Program-made: the position numbers and the translations under genes
Notes under the pieces: generated by a model
Databases searched by the model: none
What the model was told of the DNA's origin: nothing
What the model saw: the letters and a program-made list of their open reading frames with translations, nothing else
Part shown: piece by piece, positions 2,017-24,495 of the stretch
How positions within the stretch are numbered: the first letter of the stretch is position 1
Layout of the letters: every line of letters starts with the position of its first letter
DNA from: Octopus vulgaris
Lineage: Eukaryota
Assembly (NCBI GenBank): GCA_951406725.2
Contig: OX597840.1
Location: 24,986,001-25,050,000 of the forward strand
Direction: 5' to 3'
DNA: 64,000 nucleotides

Positions 2017-2240
2017 CGAGGCTCTGCTGAAAAGTTCCTGACTTTGGGTAAAAGAAAATAGAGGAGGATCACTTAATTATGATTTTATTCAACATATTCC
2101 CCTCCTCTCAGATTCACACATTTATTGCAGGGGTCATACAGTTTTCCTAAGCCCTGTAAAAGAACTTGGAAGATTGGGCTTCCAACCAAGCCTTTCACGA
2201 CACTCTTAAATACAAGAACTTTCCAGAAACCCTTGTAAAT
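2017..2240 (+). mobile_element. Probable Tc1/mariner-type non-autonomous element end fragment
   Basis: Starts CGAGG..TGCTGAAAAGTTCC, resembling mariner TIRs; the partner TIR was not found. Confidence 0.4.
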
Positions 2241-2243
2241 ATT

Positions 2244-2642
2244 CTCTCTTTTACTCTTGTACTTGTTACAGTCATTTGACTGCGGCCATGCTGCAGCAAC
2301 GCCTTTTAGTCGAGCAAATCTACCCCGGGACTTATTCTTTGTAAGCCCAGTACTTATTCTATCGGTCTCTTTTGCCGAACCGCTAAGTGACGGGGACGTA
2401 AACACACCAGCATCGGTTGTCAAGCAATGCTAGGGGGAAAAACACAGACACACACACATACATACATATATATATATACATATATACGACAGGCTTCTTT
2501 CAGTTTCCGTCTACCAAATCCACTCACAAGGCATTAGTCGGCCCGAGGCTATAGCAGAAGACACTTGCGCAAGATGCCACGCAGTGGCACTGAACCCGGA
2601 ACCATGTGGTTGGTAAGCAAGCTACTTACCACACAGCCACTC
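2244..2642 (-). mobile_element. SINE family A
   Basis: Reverse complement of the 332-769 consensus. Confidence 0.9.
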
Positions 2643-2762
2643 AACTCACTTTGATATTTATCATTGTTTGATTTCACTTTTTCAATATCAGCGACAGTGG
2701 ACGCTGGAAAAAGTATAAGTATTTGTGAAGGAAATCTAATTCTCGGCGACAACTATGATTGT

Positions 2763-2807
2763 CACACGCTGACGAGAGGTCAATACCTCGAAACTCGAGT
2801 CCGTGTG
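2763..2807 (+). ncRNA. Type I minimal hammerhead ribozyme
   Basis: cacacg CTGACGA gaggt caat acctc GAAA ctcgag TC cgtgtg: 6-bp stem I, 5-bp stem II, palindromic stem III, GUC site. Confidence 0.93.
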
Positions 2808-3115
2808 TATCATAAGTTGAAGACGGGAAGGATGACTTCCCTTTGCAAATACTGACAGGACACAGATAGTGTGTCTATGGCCAGCTGGAGGAGTGTGTCC
2901 TCCTGGGGCTAAAAACTACAGTAGCATCCACCCTTAGGGGTTAGCCATATTGAAATGGCAAAAATACGTCACGATGTGTTACCGCTACTGTATATAACTC
3001 ACATTGATATTTATCATTGTTTGATTTCACTTTTTCAATATCAGCGACAGTGGACGCTGGAAAAAGTATAAGTATTTGTGAAGGAAATCTAATTCTCGGC
3101 GACAACTATGATTGT

Positions 3116-3160
3116 CACACGCTGACGAGAGGTCAATACCTCGAAACTCGAGTCCGTGTG
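3116..3160 (+). ncRNA. Type I minimal hammerhead ribozyme (second unit)
   Basis: Identical to 2763-2807. Confidence 0.93.
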
Positions 3161-3321
3161 TATCATAAGTTGAAGACGGGAAGGATGACTTCCCTTTGCA
3201 AATACCGACAGGACACAGATAGTGTGTCTATGGCCAGCTGGAGGAGTGTGTCCTCCTGGGGCTAAAAACTACAGTAGCATCCACCCTTAGGGGTTAGCCA
3301 TATTGAAATGGCAAAAATACG

Positions 3322-3359
<38 letters not shown>

Positions 3360-3381
3360 ATGTTACATTACTCGGTAGTCA

Positions 3382-3444
3382 AGATAAAACTCTGAGTTTC
3401 AGATGCCGAAGTGGAAATCCACAACACCATCTCTTCGGTTATCT
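3382..3444 (-). ncRNA. Hammerhead-like motif, U4C variant (left arm)
   Basis: Reverse complement of 3600-3662. Confidence 0.65.
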
Positions 3445-3599
3445 GGCCATCTGAAAAGACGCTATGAAAAAATACCGTTAAATAAAGGGAAATTGACGAA
3501 AAATGCGAGCGATGTATAAGTACGCAGGCAAGCAGAGTTATAACAGAGTAATTTTCCTTTATTTATCGGTATTTTTTCATAGCGTCTTTTCAGATGGCC

Positions 3600-3662
3600 A
3601 GATAACCGAAGAGATGGTGTTGTGGATTTCCACTTCGGCATCTGAAACTCAGAGTTTTATCT
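3600..3662 (+). ncRNA. Hammerhead-like motif, U4C variant (right arm)
   Basis: agataa CCGAAGA gatg...catct GAAA ctcagag TT ttatct: 6-bp stem I, GUU site. Confidence 0.65.
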
Positions 3663-3758
3663 TGACTACCGAGTAATGTAACATATTGTATAGATAAATT
3701 TCCTCTACTTACATAATATTGAGGTCTCTTTCTTTCTTTTGTTATCTTACCGTTTTAT

Positions 3759-4080
<322 letters not shown>

Positions 4081-4096
4081 AGAATATATATATATG

Positions 4097-4132
<36 letters not shown>

Positions 4133-23136: not shown

Positions 23137-23552
23137 AGGCGGCGAGCTGGGCGAAACGTTAGCACGCCGGGCGAAATGTGTAGCCGTATTTCGTCTGTCG
23201 TTACGTTCTGAGTTCAAATTCTGCCGAGGTCGACTTTGCCTTTCATCCTTTCGGGGTCGATAAATTAAGTACCAGTTACGCACTGGGGTCGATGTAATCG
23301 ACTTAATACCTATGTCTGTCCTTGTTTGTTCCCTCTTTGTTTAGCTCCTTGTGGGTAGTAAAGAAATAGGTATTTCGTCTGCCGTTACGTTCTGAGTTCA
23401 AATTCTGCCGAGGTCGACTTTGCCTTTCATCCTTTCGGGGTCGATAAATTAAGTACCAGTTACGCACTGGGGTTGATGTAATCGACTTAATACCTATGCC
23501 TGTCCTTGTTTGTCCCCTCTGTGTTTAGCCCCTGGTGGGTAGTAAAGAAATA
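23137..23552 (+). mobile_element. SINE family B with a tandem headless second unit (184 bp)
   Basis: GTATTTCGTCTG occurs at 23186 and again at 23370. Confidence 0.88.
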
Positions 23553-23826
23553 TATATTTAAAGGGAAAATATTTAGTGATTGACGGATCTGCTATACGGA
23601 ATTCCACCAGTTTGATCAGTCAGAAAATGTAAGGAAATGAATAACGCTCTGTTAGCAGAGCAATAGAGGAGTCGATTCACATTGGTCAAGGAAGATCTTT
23701 TGGTCAATGTGCAACACAACCAAGGCAACTAACATGTACACGGAGAAAACTTCGTCCACAGTTGTGGTCATCAAAGGTAGATGCCTACGACACGCATAAA
23801 TCCCGATCTCTCTCTCTCTCTCTTTC

Positions 23827-23914: not shown

Positions 23915-24250
23915 ATATAATATTAATTAGAGACAAAACCACTATTTTGCAAAACAAACAAGGAAAGACTTAATCAATACATAAAATTTTAATAAAAAGT
24001 AAAAAACCCGCCACTACAATTGTTTCTTGTCCTGATCGACAATCTTCAGGACAAGAAACAATTGTAGTGGCGGGTTTTTTACTTTTTATTAAAATTTTAT
24101 GTATTGATTAAGTCTTTCCTTGTTTGTTTTGCAAAATAGTGGTTTTGTCTCTAATTAATATTATATAATATTTTACTATAAAATTGGATTTAATCCTAAA
24201 TCTGATTTTTTTCCTGTAATTTTGGATTTATTCCCTAATATTTATTATTA
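23915..24250. mobile_element. (TA)n-nested fold-back HHR element
   Basis: Near-perfect arms 23915-24035 / 24046-24166; minus 24011-24050 reads c CTGAAGA ttgtc gatcag gacaa GAAA caattg TA gtgg, with the 5' strand of stem I lost at the axis. Confidence 0.8.
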
Positions 24251-24495
24251 TATATATATATATATATATACACATAACATAATAGGTGTATTTTTTCTTG
24301 TTTTAGTCATTTGACTGCGGCCATACCGGAGCACCATCATGAAGGGCTCTTTAGTCAAACAAATCAATCCCAGGACATTTTTTAAGCTTGTTACTCATTC
24401 TATCGGTCTCTTGTGCCGAACCGCTAAGTCGCGAGGACGTGAACACACTAAAACTGGTGAGGTGAGGGGCGAACACAGACACAAAGACACGCGCA

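Follow-up and report, generated by a model that had tools for sequence, protein, structure and literature searches.

What kind of element is the short tandem repeat at positions 2643-3325 of this stretch of Octopus vulgaris DNA, and how did it come to lie there? The stretch as a whole (the window, 64,000 nucleotides) is animal-type DNA rich in microsatellites and SINE-like repeats. The repeat within it carries the sequence-level features of metazoan non-LTR retrozymes, with cleavage and circular RNA predicted. We favour, at a probability of about 0.6, the reading that the locus is a young copy of a non-autonomous, non-coding non-LTR retrozyme that passes through a circle and is mobilised in trans by the RT/GIY-YIG protein of a Penelope-like element (PLE).

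Two units with hammerheads and a conserved fold

Two near-identical 353-bp units do lie head to tail at this site, as the first-pass annotation had claimed. The period is 353, with 2 mismatches in the 330 positions compared, at 2650/3003 (T/A) and 2853/3206 (T/C) only, and copy 2 lacks the final 23 nt of the unit. The features that the argument needs are these:

2643-3325, + strand: whole insertion, 683 bp or 1.93 units, with no target-site duplication and no junction microhomology found
2643-2995, + strand: copy 1, 353 bp, identical to a closed contig (383 nt) in run X6 and, over the parts covered, to contigs from runs X17 and X7
2996-3325, + strand: copy 2, 330 bp, differing from copy 1 at 3003 and 3206 and stopping at the family's common 3' end
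2802-3154, + strand: predicted 353-nt monomer, from cut to cut
2763-2807, + strand: type I hammerhead 1, with helix I of 6 bp, helix II of 4-5 bp, helix III of 2 bp and a palindromic 4-nt loop; predicted GUC cut after 2801
3116-3160, + strand: type I hammerhead 2, identical to hammerhead 1; predicted cut after 3154
2793-2800, + strand: self-complementary stem III strand, candidate for double-hammerhead pairing with 3146-3153
2718-2853, + strand: predicted rod-like stack of helices around the hammerhead; the 14-bp helix 2718-2731/2840-2853 closes it
2917-2992, + strand: predicted four-way junction, with a 9-bp closing stem (2917-2925/2984-2992) and hairpins 2930-2941, 2944-2959 and 2963-2980
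3326-3355, no strand: (TA)15 run directly after the 3' end
2240-2642, - strand: SINE-like repeat, a flank outside the element, with 19 BLAST hits in the window (itself included) and its 5' end about 9 nt short at the junction

With 1.93 copies present, a single cut-to-cut monomer would be releasable from this locus. The unit is non-coding (longest ATG-started frame 38 codons; GC 42%), and no further copy of it was found elsewhere within the 64-kb window. No LTR layout was found at 2643-3325 and no tRNA gene in 2200-4100. An autonomous PLE was considered and rejected, as no RT or GIY-YIG frame lies within or beside 2643-3325. An internal Pol III promoter, which is recognised by its A and B boxes, is not supported: there is no A box, B-box-like words occur only with a mismatch, and a T5 run lies at 2678. 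No promoter for + strand transcription of the tandem copies was found.

The perfect hammerhead core claimed for each unit is present, with CTGACGA at 2769 and 3122 and GAAAC...GTC ending at the predicted cut sites 2801 and 3154. The Rfam model Hammerhead_1 (RF00163) aligns with both from end to end, in 45 of 45 positions and with every core base. The score is 32.2 bits (E 5e-6), short of the model's gathering threshold of 34; applied at that threshold, the model has 0 matches across the whole window. The unit has hammerheads on the + strand and none on the - strand. A viroid-like replicating RNA was rejected on this single polarity and on the existence of integrated DNA copies. The stem III strand is the self-complementary element that had been pointed out, a perfect 8-nt palindrome with a self-duplex energy of -10.7 kcal/mol, and dimeric cleavage through it is plausible on this modelling. 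The fold of the tandem gives stem III pairing between copies 1 and 2 a probability of about 1e-4, a value that is uninformative since this pairing crosses helix I, beyond the program's model. One X7 contig has a different palindrome at the helix III loop, a hint from sequence that self-complementarity matters.

Core-like motifs occur elsewhere. The one at 24049 on the minus strand is part of a long AT-rich DNA palindrome between TA runs (~23940-24270), whose centre mimics a hammerhead core by chance, and a second lies at 55448 on the plus strand. An exact 18-20-nt pattern gave 0 matches in metagenome and genome contigs and 1 in viral contigs (L001), a lone 19-nt match that we judge to be chance. 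A degenerate core pattern gave 4, 2 and 0 matches in the contig collections, none similar to the unit at E 0.01. Two of these metagenome contigs, unrelated to the unit, share an identical hammerhead-like core with a paired helix II (L002 181-215 and L005 242-276, both on the minus strand).

The unit is hairpin-dense, as had been noted, with 63% of its bases predicted to pair, and more stable than shuffled controls. The linear monomer folds at z = -5.35 and the circular monomer at -116.9 kcal/mol (z = -6.8), with 0 of 100 shuffles as stable in either case; the minus strand gives z = -4.3. The 13-bp helix 2719-2731/2840-2852 exists, with 2 G-U pairs and a mean pair probability of 0.93, and reaches 14 bp with the pair 2718-2853. 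We consider the junction at 2917-2992 a candidate recognition and priming module, on the strength of its modelled shape.

A divergent relative of the unit bears on this fold. One X17 contig (record 10) is about 89% identical and has 19 substitutions in 2700-2875. With canonical hammerhead pairing imposed on 2760-2808, 3 pairs are altered on both sides against 0.60 expected (P = 0.015, 100,000 draws of random positions), and controls with slid partners give 0, 0, 1, 0, 0 and 0. Position 2754 pairs about equally with 2814 or 2815, both of them changed; the 2814 register alone preserves its pair, and that register was picked after the letters were seen. By hand count of the 40 substitution rows listed, out of 47 in all, 18 are unpaired, 8 make up four two-sided changes (2692/2703, 2732/2838, 2754/2814, 2776/2789), 8 are one-sided with the pair kept, and 6 break a pair. 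The breaks are thus 6 of the 22 listed at paired positions, and 4 of them are at helix ends. The core-region changes listed for the divergent contig fall at tolerated positions: N7, the helix II loop, a compensated helix II pair, and the cut-site base (C to A). Judged by sequence comparison, the RNA fold is conserved in the family.

A young copy from a family with a common 3' end

The unit belongs to a family. Twenty of 24 runs listed (14 studies, 12 organism codes) hold 78-92% of its sampled words; none of the twenty is on record as RNA, and the run types are guesses. The common word share of 0.81 is probably due to the word query, which included the two private changes of copy 2. Contigs of four holder runs (X1, X6, X7 and X17) were aligned to 2618-3020; the 16 others are known by word share alone, which is no evidence of an identical copy. 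In X1 (organism A), a guessed DNA run that may be the window's own source, 4,576 of 40.6 million contigs align to the stretch. This figure is no copy number. By identity, 1,107 of these contigs are at 99% or above, 1,402 at 95-99%, 1,445 at 90-95% and 622 below, and they include several subfamilies. In X6 (organism E) a closed contig of 383 nt, which is 353 nt plus a 30-nt overlap, matches copy 1 with 0 differences. Both X17 (organism I) and X7 (organism A) give 0-difference pieces and the 2995->2643 joint, which is present in three of the four runs aligned. Tandem DNA, multimeric RNA and a circle would each yield such a closed contig equally well. Contigs reveal neither the ends nor the strand of an RNA, and no peaks of begins or ends are seen in them. 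The SINE flank at 2618-2631 is not covered by X7 or X17 contigs.

These results refute a duplication confined to a single locus, the case that the first-pass annotation had set against its own reading: 4,576 X1 contigs lie on the stretch, and copy 1 equals the closed X6 contig. Its claim of a young, retrozyme-like element stands, and the element is multi-copy. Copy 1 is the family's common sequence and the insertion is 2 of 683 bases off it, so the insertion is young.

In X1, summed depth at 2912-2939 exceeds that at 2702-2785 about sevenfold, depth again being no copy number. This excess fits either 5' truncation or a 3' module common to subfamilies. The ~89% subfamily accounts for roughly one fifth of X7 and X17 depth and for less than 1% at several diagnostic X1 sites, which is a hint, contig depth being a poor measure.

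The 3' end of the insertion is common to other members of the family. The copy ends at 3325, which is unit site 2972 (3325-353), directly before (TA)15. Among the loose ends listed for X1, 22 contigs depart behind 2972, and the sequence that follows is AT-rich, long (median 108 nt) and mixed, with an agreement of 0.49. The remaining five rows listed for X1 are short (11-26 nt), with agreement of 0.71-0.85, as divergent subfamilies would give. By eye, the loose ends of X17 and X7 at 2972 resemble the continuation of other subfamilies and not flanks, so part of the 22 X1 contigs may be of that kind as well. Neither junction of the present insertion appears among the contig pieces listed. Site 2972 is unpaired in the predicted fold, in the loop of the junction's third hairpin and 171 nt past the cut. 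It is a candidate priming base for reverse transcription, by analogy with a published PLE discussed below. A fixed internal 3' end at an AT-rich or microsatellite target is a trait of PLE-mobilised elements, and it is seen in the 22 X1 contigs and in the insertion's own end. A 3' end common to the family, placed in a hairpin loop, together with the TA target, points to Penelope-type mobilisation. What is new here is this common 3' end in a hairpin loop, running into AT-rich DNA.

The (TA)15 run is the probable target site. At the left junction, the ~9 nt missing from the SINE-like repeat are kept in 8 of 9 other copies with the same anchor, and 1 of 9 enters a TA run there; a deletion at the target is possible on this comparison. 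The right flank is a TA run. A target-site duplication of more than 4 bp is described as an optional feature of metazoan retrozymes (PMC7229834).

To the right of (TA)15 lies a MITE-like palindrome (3352-3692) with near-perfect arms of about 145 bp and a single copy in the window. Two further traces of mobile elements were seen: a remnant of a mariner (Mos1-type) transposase HTH at 38923-39396 on the minus strand (Pfam HTH_48, E 6e-22), and a short frame at 60847-61119 on the plus strand, which has no Pfam match and which we take to resemble the 3' end of a CR1-type LINE ORF.

The tandem could instead have arisen as a satellite or a local duplication at the DNA level, with an incidental, decaying hammerhead. 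The window does contain further short tandem duplications, in which a second SINE-like repeat runs head to tail at 23186-23559 and 33795-34356 (184 bp x2.0 and 190 bp x3.0), and Li et al. 2026 (10.64898/2026.07.22.740005) propose local amplification of arrays. However, the repeat here begins and ends abruptly against unrelated flanks, and its common 3' end with mixed AT-rich flanks, its compensatory changes and its strong folding are at odds with such an origin. Of all the readings considered, we give this one the least credence.

Routes of copying and spread

The window itself holds one possible trace of a PLE. At 54606-55100 on the minus strand is the end of an ORF broken by one stop and one frameshift; it contains a CxxxxCxxC motif and GIY-YIG-like words and lies before (TAAA)n and TA runs. 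On these sequence features it looks like the 3' end of a PLE. Pfam and PDB gave no match for the GIY-YIG-like frame, and an Atlas search gave a lead only, a cluster at rank 17 (0.94) in which 17% of members have GIY-YIG. No partner PLE with sequence in common with the unit was found, and this remnant likewise is no demonstrated partner. The repeat annotation of Octopus vulgaris reports 31 recently active PLE families, and its available text has 0 occurrences of ribozyme or retrozyme (PMC13282606).

There is a biochemical precedent for the route we favour. The purified PLE protein of an anole cuts AT-rich DNA and begins reverse transcription inside an RNA stem-loop, and genomic copies end at those starts (PMC11167929). 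TA microsatellites have been reported as PLE targets (PMC8557442). In our preferred reading, the + strand of tandem copies would first be transcribed. Second, the hammerheads would cut the multimers into 353-nt monomers, probably aided by palindromic stem III pairing or by a protein. Third, a host RtcB-type ligase would close the monomers into circles, as RtcB did for axolotl and mussel monomers (PMC7229834). Fourth, the PLE protein would nick AT-rich DNA and prime internally at the third-hairpin loop, 171 nt past the cut; the common end and the AT-rich flanks are seen, and the enzyme is our supposition. Finally, copying would have run 683 nt across two intact cut sites, halting 159 nt upstream of the first. 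That geometry is seen and is as expected for 1.9 turns round a circle, with the circular template presumed.

The copy spans two intact cut sites from the common end, so its template was presumably a circle or an uncut multimer and not an end-primed linear monomer. The choice between these two is the main alternative to be weighed. The locus may have been copied from an uncut multimeric transcript, primed internally: the same PLE-mobilised repeat, with a hammerhead that rarely cuts and no circle accumulating. In the hammerhead's predicted lowest-energy fold, at -14.5 kcal/mol, the core is paired with itself, whereas the active layout comes out at -8.7 to -10.2 kcal/mol. This preference of 4-6 kcal/mol concerns secondary structure only, tertiary contacts being outside the model. 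The anole PLE uses uncut RNA as its main substrate, its hammerhead mutants were still inserted, and its hammerhead needs protein (PMC11167929); since it inserts from uncut RNA, crossing two cut sites needs no circle. Moreover, Li et al. 2026 found no in vitro cleavage in 8 of 9 Xenopus (frog) dimers. Against this, neither copy has a flaw in its core, those core-region changes that are listed for the divergent contig are at tolerated positions, and coral, mussel and axolotl elements of the same layout all gave circles in the available account of them (PMC7229834). Copying from uncut RNA is in our view unlikely, yet serious enough to be kept beside the preferred route through a circle.

A second alternative concerns what the unit is. 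It may be the pseudo-LTR of an autonomous PLE, the locus being a 5'-truncated tandem of it and no independent retrozyme. The fixed 3' end and the AT-rich target are both characteristic of PLEs, and 24 of the 57 retrozyme families of Xenopus have terminal matches to known elements (PLEs in 21 of 22; Li et al. 2026). Contigs of X17 and X6 that have the unit's 3' module depart behind 2959 into other, unexplained sequence, which may be another subfamily or an autonomous partner. Yet the unit closes on itself without an ORF in X6, its 353 joint recurs in three of the four runs, and no coding frame lies in or beside the insertion. PLE hammerheads, in addition, are mostly minimal variants with a longer helix II and a shorter helix I (PMC4209133). 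We therefore regard this reading as rather improbable, and hold to an independent, non-autonomous retrozyme.

The sequence of copy 1 is present, base for base, in runs under three organism codes (A, E and I). Could the unit be a horizontally spreading, viroid-like 353-nt circle that exploits Penelope enzymes by means of a cloverleaf-like module for priming? If the coded organisms were distant animals and the copies integrated, the retrozyme circle would be an RNA that moves between species. We think this very unlikely. In X17, a run of 1,091 million letters, only 5 contigs match the stretch; their depth is 6-27, and they include the divergent subfamily also present in X7. So few contigs, such low depth and an X7-like subfamily form the pattern of trace admixture. 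As the source of the identical unit, horizontal spread is less likely than admixture or sister species, and the organism codes may stand for sister species or synonymous names. A literature search found no account of horizontal transfer of retrozymes.

Comparison with known systems

The retrozyme is a kind of element already known from mussels, corals and salamanders, and as a retrozyme the octopus unit is ordinary. Metazoan non-LTR retrozymes, as described by Cervera and de la Pena 2020 (PMC7229834), are non-coding head-to-tail repeats of 150-450 bp with GC below 50%; the present unit, at 353 bp and 42%, is likewise. The class has no LTR, PBS or PPT. They have one type I hammerhead per unit, a short helix III with a palindromic loop and a strongly self-paired circle, all of which are predicted here. 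The reported sizes are 350-390 nt in mussel, 331/353 nt in axolotl and 220-245 nt in coral (PMC7229834), and 353 nt fits the mussel range, the published families having been compared by description and not by sequence.

Three differences stand out. The mussel, axolotl and coral elements have RNA data, whereas the present unit is known from its sequence and predicted folds. The published circles are mostly predicted with a free hammerhead, while the predicted fold here hides the core (PMC7229834). A fixed hairpin-loop 3' end with a TA target is seen here, and the available part of that paper has no such description for its retrozymes. No literature on octopus or cephalopod hammerheads or retrozymes was found, although the supplement of PMC7229834, which was outside the search, may list one.

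The hammerhead geometry, with helix I of 6 bp, helix II of 4 bp, helix III of 1-2 bp and a palindromic loop, is canonical for metazoans as defined in PMC4209133, and does not fit the minimal PLE type described there. Li, Clavereau and Pollet 2026 (10.64898/2026.07.22.740005), whose survey takes in 31 vertebrates, 3 insects and 1 coral, define an active retrozyme as a tandem with complete type I hammerheads in two consecutive units, which is the layout of this locus. They describe retrozymes as non-autonomous PLE derivatives, and the same octopus genome has the PLE remnant noted above. Most likely, the unit works like a non-autonomous PLE.

The closest parallel in mechanism is PAc, the Poseidon PLE of Anolis carolinensis (Frangieh et al. 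2024, PMC11167929), with its internal stem-loop start downstream of the hammerhead and its AT-rich target; the present locus is similar in both. PAc is autonomous, with a hammerhead that overlaps the start of its ORF, whereas there is no ORF here. Its start site is ~85-92 nt past the cut (subtracted from the published numbers), against 171 nt here, and its genomic ends are two, where one common end is seen here.

Which enzyme copies retrozymes, and whether its template is a circle, are questions stated as open in the available texts of both retrozyme studies (PMC7229834; Li et al. 2026). The value of this locus is as a test case. It offers a young, near-consensus copy, a candidate priming base at 2972 and a candidate (TA)n target, to which the published in vitro assay of the anole PLE is directly applicable.
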